IMG/VR virus record: IMGVR_UViG_3300035670_000097
Coordinates: 62,001-93,817 of that record
DNA length: 31,817 bases
Source: an uncultured virus (IMG/VR IMGVR_UViG_3300035670_000097)
Lineage: Duplodnaviria; Heunggongvirae; Uroviricota; Caudoviricetes
Direction: 5' to 3' (one strand)
Position numbers and translations under genes: made by a program. Below the pieces are notes generated by a model. The model had not been told where the DNA came from and ran no database searches. It saw nothing but the letters and a program-made list of their open reading frames with translations. Numbering within the stretch: position 1 is the stretch's first letter; each line of letters opens with the position of its first letter. Shown in pieces: positions 1 through 10,209 of this stretch.

Positions 1-13
1 GAGAAAAATTCGC

Positions 14-43
14 TTGACAAGTAATGGATAGGGGTGATATAAT
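14..43 (+). promoter_or_regulatory. sigma70-type promoter TTGACA-N18-TATAAT (TGn extended -10) with no downstream gene
   Basis: Exact hexamers at 14-19 and 38-43, A-tract upstream, GGCGC downstream; five more copies with the same spacing. Confidence 0.7.
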
Positions 44-89
44 TTTGGCGCCATATTGACAAGTAGCTTGACAATTCGCCCCGAGGCGG

Positions 90-112
90 CAAATGCGAAT
101 GATTCTCATTTG
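90..112. promoter_or_regulatory. Fur-box-like dyad CAAATGCGAATGATTCTCATTTG (identical at 971-993; variants 1581-1603, 2165-2187, 2891-2913)
   Basis: Reverse complement of 95-113, GCAAATGAGAATCATTCGC, matches 14/19 of the E. coli Fur box GATAATGATAATCATTATC (hand count). Confidence 0.55.
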
Positions 113-248
113 CATCGCTGCTCTTGTACCTCGCGCCTAACCAAATGCTTGACAATTGCGCGCTTAACATGCTTACCATGTTTAGCGGAATGCGTTCCTG
201 CTCGCCCTGCTAAATGCGCGTTTTTAGCTACAAAATTTTGCGCTTTCA

Positions 249-695
249 TTATACGTCCCTCGGGTGTATTGCGTTAATTCCCAGTATTTTAACAGTGTTT
301 CTTACAGAATCATTATCTTCATAAAATACATTAGAAACGCGGTGAAAGTCTACATTTAATCCTGACAGTAAGTCATATTTTAGAAGTGCATCGGGCCGAT
401 TATCGTTCTCACCTTCGCGGGACAATACGCGATCAAAGTGTAACCCATGAGTACGCAAAAAGGTAAAGTCTGCCATCTGCAATACTCGCGCAGTACAAAT
501 TACGACAATATTACCAGCATTCCAAACGTCACGCCAAACGTTAGCGAGCGGTAAAAGTTTATCTTGCATAATCTTTTCGGGCGTAGAATTTGCTCGCCAT
601 CCGGCAAGGCAAAAGCTACCGTCCGCATTCGCAACAGAACGATGGCTTGAATCTATGACCGTTCCATCTAAATCGAAAATGTTATATCTTGGCAT
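249..695 (-). CDS. dmp: HAD-family deoxynucleoside-5'-monophosphatase, T5 Dmp-like (148 aa)
   Basis: HAD motif I IFDLDGTVIDSSHR, IMQDKLLPL, motif II ICTAR, motif IV FYEDN; start moved to ATG 695 just after the stop of the upstream small ORF. Confidence 0.85.
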   Translation of the reverse strand: MPRYNIFDLDGTVIDSSHRSVANADGSFCLAGWRANSTPEKIMQDKLLPLANVWRDVWNAGNIVVICTARVLQMADFTFLRTHGLHFDRVLSREGENDNRPDALLKYDLLSGLNVDFHRVSNVFYEDNDSVRNTVKILGINAIHPRDV

Positions 696-699
696 TTTC

Positions 700-795
700 T
701 TAAACCCCGTAAACGTGTGCGCTGGCAACAATGATTGCAAAAAGAACGACTCTGCTAAGAGCGGAAGTGAGTACTAATTCTGCGAGCTTTTTCAT
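700..795 (-). CDS. 31-aa hydrophobic peptide MKKLAELVLTSALSRVVLFAIIVASAHVYGV (absent from ORF track)
   Basis: First ORF after promoter 824-852; leader AGGAAACGGAACGAATG; TAA lies 4 nt before the dmp ATG. Confidence 0.7.
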   Translation of the reverse strand: MKKLAELVLTSALSRVVLFAIIVASAHVYGV

Positions 796-823
796 TCGTT
801 CCGTTTCCTGATTCAATGGGAGT

Positions 824-852
824 ATTCTACCGGGTCCGAGCAAAAAGTACAA
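824..852 (-). promoter_or_regulatory. pre-early-type promoter TTGTAC-N17-TAGAAT
   Basis: Same hexamers and spacing at 1432-1460 and 3146-3174, each directly upstream of a gene. Confidence 0.85.
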
Positions 853-897
853 GAACTCTTTTTCATATCGCTGGCCGTTTTCATGCGAAAAAATTCC

Positions 898-927
898 TTG
901 ACAAAACCCATGCGGTTATCGTAAAAT
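898..927 (+). promoter_or_regulatory. gene-less promoter TTGACA-N18-TAAAAT
   Basis: Hexamers 898-903 and 922-927, followed by CGGCGCG. Confidence 0.7.
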
Positions 928-1039
928 CGGCGCGGCTATTGACAAGTAGCTTGTCAATTCGCCGAGGCGGCAAATGCGAATGATTCTCATTTGCATTTGC
1001 CGAGCAACGTTATAACATACCATTGAGCGGGTAAATGAA

Positions 1040-1058
1040 GGGGCGCTCATCGCGCCCC
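1040..1058 (-). terminator. intrinsic terminator after the A2-like gene
   Basis: GGGGCGC-N5-GCGCCCC hairpin 6 nt past the stop, followed by TTCATTT on the minus strand. Confidence 0.65.
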
Positions 1059-1064
1059 GATCAT

Positions 1065-1385
1065 CTATCGAGCAATCGCTTCCAGCAACCGCTCGAGTGA
1101 CACCTTACTTGCCTTTTCCAGCCCATCCAGACTGTTAGTGGCCAGATTCAATGCTTGCTCAATTCGGTCTACCGTGACTTCCTTGGAAGCAACTGGCTTT
1201 CCATCCTTGCGAACCCGTTCGAGTTTCTGGTAGGGAATTCCTTCCCGAATCGCTTTTGCGATGATGCTCTTGACTTTCGCATCAAACTGCTCTGCAAGGC
1301 TCTCTACCTTTTCAAGGTTCAGAGGCGCTGCATCGCGCATCGCGGTCAGAAGGGTCGGGTTAAACGTGCTAGCTTTCTCTGCCAT
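1065..1385 (-). CDS. A2: T5 A2-like DNA-binding / second-step-transfer protein (106 aa)
   Basis: KSIIAKAIREGIPYQKLERVRKDG and LDGLEKASKVSLERL parallel T5 A2 motifs as recalled; RBS AAGGAG; own promoter; neighbour of dmp. Confidence 0.7.
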   Translation of the reverse strand: MAEKASTFNPTLLTAMRDAAPLNLEKVESLAEQFDAKVKSIIAKAIREGIPYQKLERVRKDGKPVASKEVTVDRIEQALNLATNSLDGLEKASKVSLERLLEAIAR

Positions 1386-1431
1386 TTTGGCTTTCTCCTT
1401 TGGCTCGCTGGCCTATCCAGCGAATGAGAGT

Positions 1432-1460
1432 ATTCTACAGGGCCTGAGCAAAAAGTACAA
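1432..1460 (-). promoter_or_regulatory. pre-early-type promoter TTGTAC-N17-TAGAAT
   Basis: Conserved hexamers upstream of the A2-like gene. Confidence 0.85.
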
Positions 1461-1505
1461 GACCTTTTTTTCATATCGCTGGCCGTTTTCATGCAAAAAA
1501 ATTCC

Positions 1506-1535
1506 TTGACAAGCGCAGCGCGCTTATGATAAAAT
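1506..1535 (+). promoter_or_regulatory. gene-less promoter TTGACA-N18-TAAAAT (TGn), pointing into the repeat block
   Basis: Hexamers 1506-1511 and 1530-1535. Confidence 0.7.
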
Positions 1536-1613
1536 CGGCGCGCCCATTGTCAAGTAGCTTGACAATTCGCGCCGAGGCTACAAATGCGAAGATTTTTCAC
1601 TTGCAAACCAGGC

Positions 1614-1790
1614 CCAGGCCTGGCATTGAAATTTCACTTGCAAATTCGCCCCAGGCCTGGCATTGAAATTTCACTTGCAAACCAAACCCAGGCCTGGCAT
1701 TGAAATTTCACTTGCAAATTCGCCCCAGGCCTGGCATTGAAATTTCACTTGCAAATTCGCCCCGGGCCTGGCATTGAAATTTCACTTGCA
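1614..1790. repeat. 37-bp tandem repeat x5: CCAGGCCTGGCATTGAAATTTCACTTGCAAA plus 6 variable nt
   Basis: Units start at 1614, 1651, 1688, 1725, 1762. Confidence 0.97.
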
Positions 1791-1841
1791 TAGGTTTCTA
1801 ACTTGCATAGATTTCTAACTTGCATAGATTTCTAACTTGCA
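1791..1841. repeat. 17-bp tandem repeat x3 TAG(G/A)TTTCTAACTTGCA
   Basis: Directly visible. Confidence 0.95.
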
Positions 1842-1867
1842 TGTGCAGGTTTCTTGCCTTTCCCCTC

Positions 1868-1960
1868 GATGGGCAGGTAGCTTGCAGGTGAGCCCGCCGA
1901 TGGGCAGGTAGCTTGCAGGTGAGCCCGCCGATGGGCAGGTAGCTTGCAGGTGAGCCCGCC
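1868..1960. repeat. 31-bp tandem repeat x3 GATGGGCAGGTAGCTTGCAGGTGAGCCCGCC, with degenerate copies following
   Basis: Units at 1868, 1899, 1930; degenerate units at 1961 and 1991. Confidence 0.97.
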
Positions 1961-2052
1961 GATGCGCAAGAGACTTGCCTTTGCCCGCCCGATGGGCAGG
2001 CAAGTTGACGAATTCCATGAGATGCGCAGAAAACTTGCATTTTCGGCGCGGT

Positions 2053-2126
2053 TGGCACGTTTCTTGCACATGAGTCAAAGCTGGCATGAATTTTGCATGT
2101 ACTCCACAATTGGCATGATTCTTGCA
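2053..2126 (+). promoter_or_regulatory. three consensus sigma54 (-24/-12) type sites at 29-bp period
   Basis: TGGCACG-tttc-TTGCA (2053), TGGCATG-aatt-TTGCA (2082), TGGCATG-attc-TTGCA (2111). Confidence 0.6.
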
Positions 2127-2156
2127 GATTCGGCGCGGTCCGCAAGATGCTTGCAC

Positions 2157-2195
2157 AATTCCGACAAATGCGAGTAATTCGCATTTGTCGGAATT
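2157..2195. repeat. perfect inverted repeat, 17-bp arms and 5-nt loop; probable terminator of the HNH gene, built on the Fur-like core
   Basis: AATTCCGACAAATGCGA-gtaat-TCGCATTTGTCGGAATT, 11 nt past the HNH stop. Confidence 0.9.
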
Positions 2196-2206
2196 ATAAG
2201 CGATTA

Positions 2207-2551
2207 TTAAGTAGTCGCTTTATGTTCTTCTAGCATACGCGCGAACAATGCGCGCTTATTATTAATAATCGCTTCGGCTTTTATTAGAATATCGAGTTCT
2301 TCTGCCGTTAACTCAATCGGATCAAGTTTCGGCAATCCTTCTGTAGCGTTCTTTTTATTATTGCAGTCATGGCAAAGGCATTGTAACCATTCAGGATCAT
2401 TTAAATCGATACCCATTGCAAGCAACGTTTTGCGTGGATAAACATGATCAATTTCAAGATTAGAACCACTACCGCAAGCTGCGCAGCGATAGTTATATGC
2501 TGCAAATACTTGCGCGCGCAGTCTCATTTCAACCTTGCTAAACTTTGCCAT
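2207..2551 (-). CDS. HNH endonuclease (114 aa)
   Basis: CAAC...LEIDHVYP...LQCLCHDCNNKK; start moved to ATG 2551 with GGAG RBS; the longer ORF-track N-terminus runs through promoter repeats. Confidence 0.88.
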   Translation of the reverse strand: MAKFSKVEMRLRAQVFAAYNYRCAACGSGSNLEIDHVYPRKTLLAMGIDLNDPEWLQCLCHDCNNKKNATEGLPKLDPIELTAEELDILIKAEAIINNKRALFARMLEEHKATT

Positions 2552-2585
2552 CTCGTCTCTCCAGTACCGTTGCTCTATGGTTCCC

Positions 2586-2613
2586 ATTATACAGGCATCC
2601 TCGAGCATGGCAA
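2586..2613 (-). promoter_or_regulatory. promoter for the HNH gene, TTGCCA-N16-TATAAT
   Basis: Occupies the same cassette position as the other minus-strand promoters. Confidence 0.65.
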
Positions 2614-2659
2614 TAGGCGAGTTAGACCTTTTTTTCATATCGCTGAGCTTTCTTATGCG

Positions 2660-2890
2660 AAAAAAATCCTTGACACGCTCTGGCGTGGTAAGGTAAAATC
2701 GGCGCGCCCATTGTGAAGTAGACTGACAATCATTCAGCGGCCTACATGAAAAAAATTCGCTTGACAAGTATAGGATAGGTGAGGTATAATTTTGGCGCCA
2801 TATTGGCAAGTAGACTGACAATCATTCACCGGCCTACATAAAAAAATTCGCTTGACACGCTCTGGCGTGGTAGGGTATAATCGGCGCGCC
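2660..2890 (+). repeat. three tandem 91-bp units, each with a gene-less TTGACA-N18-TAWAAT promoter
   Basis: -35 at 2670, 2761, 2852; -10 at 2694, 2785, 2876. Confidence 0.9.
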
Positions 2891-2921
2891 CAAATGAGAG
2901 GTATTCTCATTTGGGTTACCG

Positions 2922-3110
2922 TTACTCCTCGCTTCGCCACACGACCGAGGAGGCATTTGAATTCAACAACCATTCCTCCACAAACACAAGTTCGCCAGTC
3001 TCATGTGCGAGTCGCTCGGCCTCTTGCACGGCAGCCTCGAGCGTGCTATAGATTGCTTCCAGCGAGTCAGCTTCATGATCGACTGCGGTCCCGACTACGT
3101 ATACTTGCAT
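2922..3110 (-). CDS. small acidic hypothetical phage protein (62 aa)
   Basis: RBS GAGGA, own promoter, MxVYVV...IYSTLEAA pattern seen in small phage proteins. Confidence 0.85.
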   Translation of the reverse strand: MQVYVVGTAVDHEADSLEAIYSTLEAAVQEAERLAHETGELVFVEEWLLNSNASSVVWRSEE

Positions 3111-3145
3111 TTTCGCGTTCCTCTGTTTCCTGATTCAATGAGAGT

Positions 3146-3174
3146 ATTCTACACGGTCTGCCGAGAGAGTACAA
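3146..3174 (-). promoter_or_regulatory. pre-early-type promoter TTGTAC-N17-TAGAAT
   Basis: Leader ATTGAATCAGGAAAC is identical to that of the 824-852 promoter. Confidence 0.85.
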
Positions 3175-3197
3175 GACTTTTTTGTAACAGAATGTAA

Positions 3198-3251
3198 CGT
3201 GCGTCGACTTGTTACCGTGCGTCGACTTGTTACCGTGCGTCGACTTGTTAC
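3198..3251. repeat. 18-bp perfect tandem repeat x3 CGTGCGTCGACTTGTTAC
   Basis: Units at 3198, 3216, 3234. Confidence 0.97.
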
Positions 3252-3343
3252 CAGCCCGGGGCGGTTCCGAGACTGTCAAGTAGCTTGACGCTCAGGCTAC
3301 CCCGCACGTACAACTTTTGGAATTTTTCAAAAATTGAAAATTA

Positions 3344-3391
3344 AAGCAATCTGCCCAAGCAATTTGCCCAAGTAATTTGCCCAAGCAATTT
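3344..3391. repeat. 13-bp tandem repeat x3.7 AAGCAATTTGCCC upstream of terS
   Basis: Units at 3344, 3357, 3370, 3383 (partial). Confidence 0.95.
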
Positions 3392-3463: not shown

Positions 3464-3910
3464 ATGAATTTGGTAAAAATTTCTCCTGAAAGTCTTGAAA
3501 TTGCAAATGCATATTTGCAAAATGGCAGCATTGCTAGTGTTGCAAAGGCGCTCGCACTTCCAGAAAATGAGGTGACAGAAATTCTCTCTCGCCGAGAAGT
3601 AAAAGCGTATCTAGATTCCATTTATCTAGATCACGGCTATCGAAATAGATTCAAGTTAGCAGAGACTCTCGATCTTCTCATAGACGAAAAACTTCGTGAA
3701 GCAGAAAGTACCGAGATGTACACTAACAAGGACTTAGCCGATCTGTTACACCTAGCTCATAAGATGCGTATGGATGAAATTAAAGCAATGACCGAACTTG
3801 AGAAAGCTCGAGCAACGCCGATTAAAAATCAAACCAACGTTCAGATTAATGAGACTCCATTTGGTGCTGGCAACTACGGCAAGTTAATGGAAAAACTTTT
3901 GCAATCATGA
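3464..3910 (+). CDS. terS: terminase small subunit, T5-like (148 aa)
   Basis: SPESLEIANAYLQNG, EVKAYLDSIYLDHGYRNR, AHKMRMDE resemble T5 TerS; the ORF-track start at 3428 is the -35 hexamer. Confidence 0.88.
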   Translation: MNLVKISPESLEIANAYLQNGSIASVAKALALPENEVTEILSRREVKAYLDSIYLDHGYRNRFKLAETLDLLIDEKLREAESTEMYTNKDLADLLHLAHKMRMDEIKAMTELEKARATPIKNQTNVQINETPFGAGNYGKLMEKLLQS

Positions 3911-4194
3911 AAGAATTTCTAGCAGAACTCGGCATGAACGCCGGTCTCATTGTCGCGGGTCTGTTTGGCTCGCTTTTAACTTTGCGGGGGGATGCCGCGA
4001 AGAGGCTTGGAAGTGTTATGGTAAGTTTAGGAACAGGAGTAGGGTCCGCAAACTATTTAACTCCAGTAGTTATTGATCTACTGGGCGTTCAAAGTCGAAA
4101 TCTCGAGTTTGGAATAGCTTTTATACTAGGCTATTTGGGGCTAAATGGCATTGATTTTCTAGCTCGACGACTTTTTGAGAGCAAAAAACCATGA
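3907..4194 (+). CDS. small multi-pass membrane protein, putative holin
   Basis: Three hydrophobic Gly-rich segments, basic C-terminus, ATGA overlap with terS. Confidence 0.6.
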   Translation: MKEFLAELGMNAGLIVAGLFGSLLTLRGDAAKRLGSVMVSLGTGVGSANYLTPVVIDLLGVQSRNLEFGIAFILGYLGLNGIDFLARRLFESKKP

Positions 4195-4430
4195 TCGAAA
4201 GCGCACTTTGTCTATCCATGATATTTTTTTACGTTTCATTGCTGAATGATAAAAAAATTTGCTCTTGGTCGAAGCCGAAAGTGTGGATATTGCGTTCACT
4301 TTTTGCAGGCAGCATTGCTTCCGTAGCTTGGAGTGTATTTTACGAAACAGAATTACCCTATCTATTTCTTACTGCAATTTTTGGTTGGGGCTTTTATTAC
4401 CATCGGTATACGTTAAATGGAAATCAGTAG
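4191..4430 (+). CDS. small membrane protein
   Basis: About three hydrophobic segments; overlaps both neighbours. Confidence 0.65.
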   Translation: MIESALCLSMIFFYVSLLNDKKICSWSKPKVWILRSLFAGSIASVAWSVFYETELPYLFLTAIFGWGFYYHRYTLNGNQ

Positions 4431-7670: not shown

Positions 7671-7946
7671 ATGACAAAAGGACAATTACTTGAAACCATT
7701 GCAAACTATTTTGTTGCAAAAGGTAAATATTTAAATATGCGAGAGTACAAGCAGCAGCCTGACTTTCCTGTAAGTCCGAACTTAGTACTTCGTGCTTACG
7801 GATCGTGGGGTCGTCTACCGAGCAAGATCAAGAAGTATTATCCTGATATTGCAGCTAAGATTGGAGCGCCTGTGGCTGCCCCTAAGCCTGCGCTCAAAAA
7901 AGCAAAGGTAGCTGAGCCTGTAAATGAGCAAAGCAGCGAATCTTAA
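7671..7946 (+). CDS. small helical protein with Pro/Ala/Lys tail, putative capsid-binding decoration
   Basis: PVSPNLVLRAYGSW helix pattern; position between portal and protease. Confidence 0.55.
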   Translation: MTKGQLLETIANYFVAKGKYLNMREYKQQPDFPVSPNLVLRAYGSWGRLPSKIKKYYPDIAAKIGAPVAAPKPALKKAKVAEPVNEQSSES

Positions 7947-10209
7947 GACAGGAGACTATGTAAAGTGGAATTCGTCTGGCGGCATAGCCAAAGGACGAAT
8001 TGAGCACACAATGAAAGAAGGCGTGTTAGGAATTCCTGGTAGTAGTTTTTCGATTACTGCTACAGAAGAAGATCCGGCAGCTTTAATTCGTATTTACAGG
8101 GACGGTAAAGAGACTGAAACTCTGGTAGGCCATAAGTTTTCTACTCTTACTAAAATTTCCCGAGAAGAAGCTTTAAAGGCTGCGGACGGAATTAATATCA
8201 TGACAAAAAATTTCTTTTTAGATACAGAGTTTAAAGCCTATGTAAGCGACGACGGGGATACTTACATTACAGGGCTTGCCAGTACTCCGGAAGTAGATCG
8301 CACTGGCGATATTATTGAATCGAATGCATGGTTAAAAGGCGGACTGGAAAATTACAAGAAAAATCCAGTAATTCTTTTTAATCACTCTTATGCGAAGCCA
8401 ATCGGTAAAGCGGTAGAAATTCAAACCGATGTAGAAGGCTTACGAATTAAAGCTAAGATTTCTCGTGCTGCGGGCGAGATTTTAGATCTTATCAAAGATG
8501 GAGTCCTTGGAGCTTTCTCCGTTGGTTTTCGAATCAAGGATGCCGATTATATGCCAGAAACCGACGGATTTCGTATCAAAGATGCAGAGTTGTTTGAAAT
8601 TTCAGTAGTATCTGTTCCTGCAAATCAATCTGCAATTTTTTCTTTGTCAAAGTCCTTTGAAAGCTCAGAGGAATATCAAAGTTTTAAACAGACCTTTATG
8701 AATGACGGCCTAGACGGGTTAGAAGAGAAAGTAAATGCTGAATCTTCGAGCGCCCCTGCGCCGGGAGAAGCGACTTCAGTCGCAACTATGGAGATAAAAA
8801 AGATGGATCCAAAAGAGTTAGAAGCACTAGTAGCTTCTGTTGCAGAAAAAACTGCACAAACATTAGCTGCTGCACAAGTCGAGCGTGAAGAAAAGTCTCG
8901 TCTTGCTGCCGAAGAAGCTGCTCGAAAAGCATCGGAAGAAAAGCAACTCTCCGATAAAATCTCGGTAGCAGTTACTACGGGGGCGGAACGACTTGTTGCA
9001 GATATTGAGAAGCGTTTTGCTGATAAGAACGCTGATCTGGAAAAGATCGTTAGCGATCTTCGCAATGAAATTTCTGAGAAGTCTCATGAAATTATGCAAA
9101 TTCGTGAATCCAAGCGAATTTTTGCCGATCGTGCAGATGGCGACTGGAAGAAGGCTTTTGCAAAAGATGCGGATGACGCATTTATTCTTGGCCTGGTTAC
9201 TCGCAAAGGCTGGCAGCAGACTTCGCTGGGTCGCCAACTGGTTGAGAAAGTTAACCAGCATTCTGGCGTTGAAGTTTCGAGTGCCGACTTTGAACAGACG
9301 GTATCGACGAACATTGAGCGTGATATTCAGAACGAGCTGATTCTGGCTCCTCTGTTCCGCGAAATTCCGATGACAGCAGCTAGCCTGATTCTGCCGATTC
9401 TGCCTGACGCTGGTTACGCAGAGTTTACGTCTTCGCAAGCTGCTGGCGGTTCTTCGCCGAAAGGTAACTTAGATCCGCGTTCGAATGCTTATGGTTCGCC
9501 CTACATCGGTGTTACCATGTCCGAGCGTGTACTGACAACCAAGAAGCTGATTTCGAAGAGCTATCTGGGCAACGAGACAGAAGAAGATGCAATTCTTCCG
9601 ATTCTGCCTCTGATTCGTGAGTCGATGGTTCGTTCGCACGCTCGTGCAATCGAAGCTTCGATTCTCGTAGGTAATCACGCTGACGGTCCTTTTGGAACTG
9701 GTGGAGCTTCGTATGACGGTCTGATTACTCTGGCCGCCGCTGATAGCGATAAGACTCAAAGCTCGACTGTAACGTATGCAAATACGGTCTTTACAGCAGC
9801 TGATCTGCTTGGTCTGCGTAAGAACATGGGCAAGTATGGCGTTCGTCCGGAAGACGTTGTTTACATCGTTAACCAGCGTACCTACTTCGAACTGCTCGAA
9901 GATGCTGAGTTCCAGGACATGAACCTGGTTGGAAATCTGGCTACGAAGATCAATGGTCAAGTTGGTCAGATCTATGGCAGCCGTGTTCTGCTCTGCGATG
10001 AGTTCGCAACTCCGGCTGCTGGAAAGTATGCCGCTATCGCAGTCTATCCGCGTAACTTCGTTGTTCCGCGTCTGCGTGGAGTTACGATTGAATCGGATTA
10101 CGATGTTGAGAATCAGCGTCGTGTGCTGGTTGCATCGCAGCGTCTTGGCTTTATTGATATTATCGACGGAGCTACGTCTAAGTGGGCACTTCAGTACCCT
10201 GGTTCGTAA
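7924..10209 (+). CDS. fused Tudor-like domain + HK97-type prohead protease + scaffold/major capsid protein (T5 pb11 + pb8 like)
   Basis: PVILFNH..PIGK, FSVGF, LFEISVVSVPAN protease motifs; coiled-coil delta domain; VEVSSADFEQTVSTNIERDIQNEL resembles T5 pb8. Confidence 0.95.
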   Translation: MSKAANLKTGDYVKWNSSGGIAKGRIEHTMKEGVLGIPGSSFSITATEEDPAALIRIYRDGKETETLVGHKFSTLTKISREEALKAADGINIMTKNFFLDTEFKAYVSDDGDTYITGLASTPEVDRTGDIIESNAWLKGGLENYKKNPVILFNHSYAKPIGKAVEIQTDVEGLRIKAKISRAAGEILDLIKDGVLGAFSVGFRIKDADYMPETDGFRIKDAELFEISVVSVPANQSAIFSLSKSFESSEEYQSFKQTFMNDGLDGLEEKVNAESSSAPAPGEATSVATMEIKKMDPKELEALVASVAEKTAQTLAAAQVEREEKSRLAAEEAARKASEEKQLSDKISVAVTTGAERLVADIEKRFADKNADLEKIVSDLRNEISEKSHEIMQIRESKRIFADRADGDWKKAFAKDADDAFILGLVTRKGWQQTSLGRQLVEKVNQHSGVEVSSADFEQTVSTNIERDIQNELILAPLFREIPMTAASLILPILPDAGYAEFTSSQAAGGSSPKGNLDPRSNAYGSPYIGVTMSERVLTTKKLISKSYLGNETEEDAILPILPLIRESMVRSHARAIEASILVGNHADGPFGTGGASYDGLITLAAADSDKTQSSTVTYANTVFTAADLLGLRKNMGKYGVRPEDVVYIVNQRTYFELLEDAEFQDMNLVGNLATKINGQVGQIYGSRVLLCDEFATPAAGKYAAIAVYPRNFVVPRLRGVTIESDYDVENQRRVLVASQRLGFIDIIDGATSKWALQYPGS

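Follow-up and report, generated by a model that had tools for sequence, protein, structure and literature searches.

Predicted sigma54 sites arrayed in the probable terminal repeat of an uncultured T5-type virus, and comparable arrays near phage terminase genes

The window analysed here, a stretch of 31,817 nucleotides corresponding to bases 62001-93817 of the virus record IMGVR_UViG_3300035670_000097, encodes a T5-type terminase small subunit (terS), a portal and a long tail. A holin-like gene (3907-4430) is found between terS and the terminase large subunit gene, and the prohead protease is fused to the major capsid protein in a product of 761 aa (7924-10209). The part of the window up to and including terS carries the following features:

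1-3225: right part of a probable 7.5-kb terminal repeat, from contig depth
92-110: Fur-box-like palindrome; further ones at 973 and 2893, three more before the window begins, and a degenerate copy at 1581
249-740, minus strand: gene homologous to T5 dmp, the pre-early marker gene for deoxynucleoside monophosphatase (E about 2e-16 with phmmer, 13 proteins compared)
1008-1017: Zur-box-like core, with a second copy upstream of the window
1065-1385, minus strand: gene for a 106-aa protein, weakly T5 A2-like (hhalign 64%, E 6.6e-5)
1506-1535, plus strand: near-consensus sigma70 promoter with an 18-bp spacer, aimed into the array (consensus match only)
1547-1565: GTCAA-N5-TTGAC palindrome, with variants at 58, 940 and 3275 and in relatives
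1595-1790, plus strand: five 37-bp repeats (repeat search)
1621, 1658, 1695, 1732 and 1769, plus strand: sigma54-like sites with two mismatches, one per 37-bp repeat (consensus scan)
1785-1841, plus strand: three 17-bp repeats with CTTGCA at their ends
1843-2155, plus strand: array of eleven GCA-N6-TTG units (motif match)
1862-1978, plus strand: 31-bp tandem repeats (repeat search)
2053, 2082 and 2111 (2053-2126), plus strand: three sites that fit the sigma54 (-24/-12) consensus perfectly, at 29-bp intervals (consensus match)
2157-2195: perfect 17-bp inverted repeat with a Fur-box-like core, at the end of the array
2207-2551, minus strand: HNH endonuclease gene converging on the array, its start placed from a GGAG site
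3464-3910, plus strand: terS, for a terminase small subunit of T5 type, opening the late operon

The names Fur, Zur, DnaA, LexA and CtrA are given throughout to boxes whose motifs we take to be those of the respective regulators. The array closes a non-coding block of 700 bp, which starts at the sigma70 promoter at 1506 and runs through the GTCAA-N5-TTGAC palindrome, the degenerate Fur-like box, the 37-bp and 17-bp repeats and the eleven units to the inverted repeat; the initial annotation had drawn the block too small, leaving out this promoter and both of the preceding repeat sets. Two open reading frames over the array (1798-2184 and 1815-2156) had no PHROG match and were treated as non-coding. 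All array sites point one way, toward two hairpins at 2157-2220 and terS. The earlier statement that no gene lies downstream on this strand stands only as far as terS, which is itself on the plus strand 1.3 kb downstream and is preceded by no credible plus-strand gene. Six near-perfect predicted sigma70 promoters (14, 898, 1506, 2670, 2761 and 2852, all plus strand) are spread over positions 1-2900 with no gene directly after them; all six have an 18-bp spacer and a G+C-rich discriminator and face the presumed genome end, the spacer of the terS promoter being 17 bp. The left half of the palindrome at 1547-1565 could be the -35 element of a leftward promoter. At the presumed end itself, a GTCAA-N5-TTGAC palindrome and triple repeats of 18 bp and of 13 bp (3195-3290 and 3344-3391) are common in outline to the related loci L003 and L008.

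All eleven GCA-N6-TTG units listed in the initial annotation are present (starts at 1843, 1871, 1902, 1933, 1964, 1994, 2024, 2053, 2082, 2111 and 2140), with successive spacings of 28, 31, 31, 31, 30, 30, 29, 29, 29 and 29 bp, but the word phased does not apply, as there is no helical phasing and 29 bp is about 2.8 turns. The sigma54 consensus used was YTGGCAYR-N4-TTGCW, and the three copies previously claimed to be consensus sites, at 2053, 2082 and 2111, match it without a mismatch. GG at -24 and GC at -12, 10 bp apart and within the full consensus, are thus found in three of the eleven units. Three more (1871, 1902 and 1933), identical 31-bp units with two mismatches, do keep GG and GC as had been proposed for the 31-bp repeats, and share a GTAGC spacer with the palindrome of the cassettes described below; the other five (1843, 1964, 1994, 2024 and 2140) lack the -24 GG or the -12 GC. 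In a comparison with shuffled sequence, the three strict sites compare with a mean of 0.0006, a number reached in none of 5000 shuffles, and GCA-N6-TTG occurs 13 times on both strands of the 313 bp against a mean of 0.67 (0/5000 dinucleotide shuffles reach 13). Across the 93.8-kb genome the three strict sites, all inside the array, compare with 0.08 expected (0/60 shuffles), and the loose GCA-N6-TTG motif is not enriched (67 vs 59, reached by 10/60 shuffles).

A single base separates the site at 2111 from the pspG site found by ChIP in E. coli, as given in Table 1 of PMC4591121, and the 31-bp and 37-bp units deviate from consensus in the manner of the ChIP-positive ybhK and glnH sites of that table, the TTTCA -12 element of the 37-bp repeats resembling that of glnH. 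Comparative evidence gives good support to the three consensus copies as predicted sites of sigma54 type, and the sites in the 37-bp repeats are weaker candidates. In run X5 one contig joins across about two of the 31-bp units (at 80% likeness), a hint that the copy number of these repeats varies. The window is a modest example of its kind: its array is mixed and was amplified recently, and three of the sites are perfect.

The array is located in what is probably a 7.5-kb terminal repeat of T5 type, presumed, in window coordinates, to run from about -4250 to +3225 or beyond. The depth of mismatch-free contigs is 70-83 over -2950 to +3225 vs 34-48 outside in run X1, and 10-19 over -4240 to +2900 vs 5-8 outside in run X3; the repeat is termed only probable because depth taken from contigs is coarse and the two runs belong to a single study. 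The roughly twofold depth is joined, within the same interval, by the dmp homolog, A2-like genes and Fur-like boxes. From the array it is about 1.1 kb to the nearer presumed end and 6 kb to the farther one; as the terS-side end of the T5 repeat enters the cell first according to the available text of 10.1101/866236, we infer that the nearer end is the first to enter. A cassette of promoter, palindrome of the GTCAA-N5-TTGAC family and Fur-like box is repeated several times between -4000 and +2900. The Fur-like core has seven of its nine genome copies in the presumed repeat (0.7 expected) and the Zur-like core two of its four; no DnaA, LexA, CtrA or FNR box was found there, and none of the six DnaA boxes of the genome falls within it.

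A paralogous array at about -3980 to -3440, composed of four related units about 31 bp apart, lies at the repeat's inner end, in the position of the T5 stop signal. Each array adjoins a copy of the A2-like 106-aa gene, the copy inward of the paralogous array, 4.4 kb upstream, being 97% identical. These two belong to a set of four related small A2-like-family genes (L081 6011-6352, 7679-8032 and 10631-10951, and window 1065-1385), two of them 97% identical. No homolog of T5 A1 was found by tblastn at E 1, and tblastn gave no match for the 106-aa protein. A second repeat family with a G+C-rich palindrome, conserved in three phages (L081 9850-10560, L003 3170-3600 and L008 1720-2150), also sits at the inner end of the presumed repeat, the T5 stop-signal position.

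Among relatives, locus L001 is identical over the array, while a comparable plus-strand array is absent from the other 79 of 80 terS-related loci, many of which have short flanks; blastn likewise gave no match to the array among cultured phages. Conservation of the array across the terS clade was rejected and, since among these loci the eleven-unit array was found only in the identical L001, site number, strand and position are not conserved. In L008 (terS 85%) the positional homolog consists mostly of TTGAC-type units, so that the GTCAA-N5-TTGAC family dominates it, plus one perfect sigma54 site, and L003 has a single site with one mismatch. Conservation of the -24 GG in homologous arrays, on which the initial annotation had made its sigma54 reading depend, is therefore partial: it is seen in the perfect site of L008, but not in its other units, and the paralogous array has no perfect site. 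Most relatives keep one or two sites, and other units belong to the GTCAA-N5-TTGAC family.

The A2-like gene was compared over 27 loci, leaving out two copies from the phage itself and one locus without upstream DNA. At 59-72% identity a site with at most one mismatch is present upstream, on either strand, in 15 of 17 loci (seven groups by eye, all positive), the single site of relatives lying 150-220 bp upstream of the gene; at 44-49% identity it is present in 0/7. In the terS clade, 334 kb of upstream DNA contains 38 sites with no more than one mismatch, vs 20 in 564 kb of downstream DNA, with spacer controls of 13/13 and 6/10 and over loci that are redundant and include L001. The predicted type of site is conserved, and the array is not.

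Similar arrays were then sought in viral and cellular sequences. At least 119 viral stretches (71 clusters) carry tandem pairs of strict sites at a spacing of 27-33 bp, whereas a control pattern with a spacer one base longer gave 29 pairs in the full scan, the spacing being a multiple of three in 28. Positions that the pattern does not specify also follow the consensus in 227 sites from the 71 clusters (pyrimidine at -1 in 86%; at +6, G in 73% and a purine in 99%). Strict triple arrays were found in 118 viral stretches (53 clusters). In GTDB (596 Gb), a stricter pair pattern, present in 112 of the at least 119 viral loci, returned 45 stretches, three of them with triples; strict triples are almost absent from cellular genomes. 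Six of these 45 loci are in Bacteroidota bins (L241, L244, L254, L255, L269 and L284), at least L244 resembling a binned phage contig and matching, by eye, the phage locus L105. As a sequence feature, the sigma54 motif array is real in phages.

Terminase matches were obtained in 21 of 45 pair representatives, from PHROG scans of 100 of 129 flanking ORFs. Among the 24 triple representatives with at least 2.5 kb on both sides, a terminase was detected within 4 kb in 13 and not detected nearby in 11, with queries partly drawn from the same loci. The terminases belong to several unrelated families; 19 of 21 triple arrays with a match stand upstream of the terminase, 12 oriented away from it and seven toward it. 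One contig (L306, L309) carries the array in both of its end repeats. Counted by cluster among the matches listed, in clusters that are not fully independent, in-phase spacing of neighbouring sites is rare (1/37 at 20-23 bp; 6/76 and 7/62 at 31-33 bp) and the favoured spacings are 17-19, 26-29 and 35-37 bp, a pattern that fits a bulky protein on alternate helix faces. Helical periodicity at 38-50 bp, predicted beforehand with a trough near 42 bp, was rejected (36/105 in phase vs 24 expected), and the avoidance of in-phase spacing is short-range only. Beside the triple arrays, DnaA boxes (4/53 vs 0.5 expected) and sigma70 promoters (22/53 vs 3.1) are in excess, and LexA boxes (1/53) and exact Fur boxes (0/53) are not enriched. 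A frequent marine array had no blastn match among cultured phages, and no site occurs in seven cultured phages, including two of Pelagibacter, that are related to other carriers of arrays.

Cultured T5-like phages offer a closer parallel. All five Vibrio phages checked have three to six strict sites (D254 six, 70E37.1 four, X1 four, pVp-1 three and Ceto five), located within a 4.5-kb stretch or its repeat copy except for one in Ceto, which has four of its five near the genome ends. My1 has one strict site per terminal repeat, AhSzq-1 three, and PR1 a single one outside its repeat; T5 and IME260 have none, and a reversed-pattern control gave no site in ten cultured Demerecviridae. In D254 (L405 5190-5550 and 9400-9610) the perfect sites form two blocks, some of them back to back or face to face, adjoining DnaA boxes, a LexA-like box and a Fur-like palindrome matching that of the window. 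The stop-signal regions of T5 (L403 9420-9710) and IME260 (L404 9781-9869) contain Fur-box-like palindromes 35 bp apart, that of T5 combining DnaA, LexA-like and Fur-like boxes with no strict sigma54 site; one more Fur-like box stands near the left end of each of these two phages. Since T5 has no strict site, sigma54 is no general requirement for two-step entry, and these comparisons would make it no more than one among a number of interchangeable factors.

The host is hinted at, weakly, by a permuted two-piece tmRNA (L084 2745-3064, minus strand; genome about 40745-41064), which scores 116 bits with the Rfam model tmRNA_permuted and 85.5 bits with beta_tmRNA and would suggest a betaproteobacterium; four tRNAs are found near it, one with a TAT anticodon. 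In the order of Thauera, Sigma54_DBD was detected in 142 of 151 genomes, a tally that includes the unpublished G025, and in all four with a clear permuted tmRNA. Hsp20 homologs gave no host taxon. Neither Sigma54_activat nor Sigma54_DBD has a match in the phage genome, which is 91% complete. Rfam has no family at the array, with only a sub-threshold miRNA match on the hairpin, and a folding z-score of -8 was discarded as evidence for an RNA, being explained by the palindromic tandem repeats.

The reading that we tentatively favour, and consider quite possible, is that the array is a silent docking pad for host sigma54 on the first-entering DNA. Host sigma54, free or as holoenzyme, would bind the three perfect copies and probably also six to eight that come near the consensus. 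The holoenzyme forms a stable closed complex without an activator, as described in the available part of PMC3844500, and because the phage seems to have no activator gene the sites would hold silent closed complexes. Together with the Fur-like and Zur-like boxes and the gene-less sigma70 promoters, they would form a landing area on the DNA of the first-step transfer, one that holds, paces or shields the incoming DNA while the pre-early products (dmp, A2-like) have yet to be made. The array may have grown by tandem duplication of a unit only a few substitutions from both the sigma54 consensus and GTCAA-N5-TTGAC; this would account for its mixture of two types of site.

The nearest known system is T5, whose repeat regions 2 and 3, the injection stop signal, carry DnaA boxes; in the accessible text of 10.1101/866236 and PMC10644984 a role of these boxes in DNA entry is a proposed model only. 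As in T5, the phage has non-coding, repeat-rich blocks in a long terminal repeat among dmp, A2-like and HNH genes, boxes for host proteins, and two related blocks several kb apart, and Fur-like boxes are shared with T5 and IME260. Unlike T5, it has sigma54 sites in place of DnaA or LexA boxes in the repeat, no inverted IRC/IRD pair was noticed, its pre-early genes point inward, and its terL is about 47% identical to that of Sugarlandvirus. Of the hallmarks of the T5 stop signal, the dmp homolog is present, A2 similarity is weak, A1 was not found and the paired DnaA boxes of IRC/IRD are absent; by the absence of DnaA boxes and of any A1 match the array falls outside the stop-signal family, yet it probably works in a similar way. 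We consider less likely than not the wider proposition that many unrelated tailed phages have converged on a transcription-free loading of host sigma54 onto tightly spaced, out-of-phase sites at the genome end, with pads of interchangeable DnaA, LexA, Fur, Zur or sigma54 boxes governing two-step entry in T5-like phages.

Different explanations might also account for the array. Replicated genomes, each with two copies of the repeat, might titrate scarce sigma54 holoenzyme and so damp phage-shock-type programmes of the host. Such a sponge, raised in the initial annotation, would suit consensus-grade sites with no gene directly after them, one being a single base from pspG, in arrays amplified in tandem and spaced as if for joint occupancy, and Fur-like boxes are clustered likewise. 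It requires, however, no link to genome ends or terminase, where most of the arrays are found; most relatives have just one or two sites; three sites on a single entering genome would titrate little; and, by the case of T5 only, whose host DNA is degraded within minutes in the available account (10.1101/866236), titration would be pointless. We judge it unlikely. No more likely is regulated transcription, in which the sites are enhancer-dependent promoters fired by a host activator, or sigma54 represses the sigma70 promoter at 1506, the output being a short RNA ending at the 2157-2220 hairpins or read-through toward terS. The common direction of the sites, the single site a short way upstream of the A2-like gene in relatives, and the dense phage site clusters that CtrA binds and regulates (PMC9437464, accessible part) would accord with it. 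That upstream site is nonetheless on either strand among relatives, arrays elsewhere more often point away from terminase than toward it, neighbours 17-29 bp apart would overlie one another's start sites, the 91%-complete genome yielded no activator gene and no Rfam family matches; repression by roadblock was, moreover, excluded at E. coli intragenic sites in the available part of PMC4591121.

Still less probable is a packaging landmark, in which sigma54 complexes mark or bend the DNA for terminase or for duplication of the terminal repeat. IHF acts in such a manner at lambda cos, and the strong association of arrays with the upstream flank of terminase genes from several unrelated families, together with the contig bearing an array in both end repeats, is what it would predict. 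Any element of genome ends would show the same proximity to terminase, however; the array here is removed from both presumed ends, and the D254 sites, which accompany DnaA repeats, are 6-11 kb from terS. We give an equally low probability to an operator for a phage protein, for example the A2-like one, on GTCAA-N5-TTGAC or GCAAG-N3-CTTGC, the match to sigma54 being incidental. The palindrome has the geometry of the sigma54 site, recurs in cassettes and relatives, and a copy of the A2-like gene adjoins both arrays; against this, the perfect sites at 2053, 2082 and 2111 are less palindromic than the other units, and the asymmetric motif, with its non-specified positions, is seen again across 53-71 unrelated clusters as well as in Vibrio phages in culture. 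The CAAG-N3-CTTG palindrome offered in the initial annotation as an alternative fits part of the array, where units grade into the GTCAA-N5-TTGAC family, and an operator probably describes some units, whatever the three perfect sites do. The protein roadblock proposed alongside the sponge is disfavoured, E. coli intragenic sigma54 sites showing no roadblock action in the accessible part of PMC4591121.

The three sites share the full consensus of bacterial -24/-12 promoters and differ from these in their tandem packing at 29-bp intervals, with neither a gene immediately after them nor an identified enhancer. Clusters of CtrA sites (PMC9437464, accessible part) are likewise dense intergenic sites of one host regulator in several phage lineages; they stand at promoters and regulate phage genes, whereas here an activator-needing sigma factor is tied to genome ends. 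In a literature search at abstract level, with subscription papers and supplements largely outside it, we found no paper on phage arrays of sigma54 sites, nor any that describes Fur or LexA boxes for the terminal repeat of T5. The text of the T5 papers mentions neither sigma54, RpoN nor Fur, and LexA is absent from two, although the supplements of the T5 preprint may catalogue repeats; the accessible part of PMC7693777 concerns a phage sigma54-like protein rather than sites, and that of PMC6028918 gave no sigma54 footprint length. A phage use of host sigma54 through genome-end arrays would be undescribed in the literature searched.

Arrays near packaging genes in dozens of phage lineages, nearly absent from cells, point to an undescribed use of a sigma factor. 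DnaA boxes are the only host-factor model that we found for the pause in T5-like DNA entry, to which sigma54 sites, adjoining DnaA boxes in the cultured Vibrio phage D254, add a candidate. If the wider proposition on converging phages is correct, sigma54 would have a structural role in infection and the T5 injection stop a testable mechanism. Sigma54 is usually dispensable for bacteria and can therefore be removed genetically. The arrays could also mark genome ends and rpoN-bearing hosts. Elsewhere in the genome, two nucleotide-sugar epimerases and several uncharacterized genes stand amid replication genes (L082 13500-19950), a block possibly concerned with DNA or surface modification.
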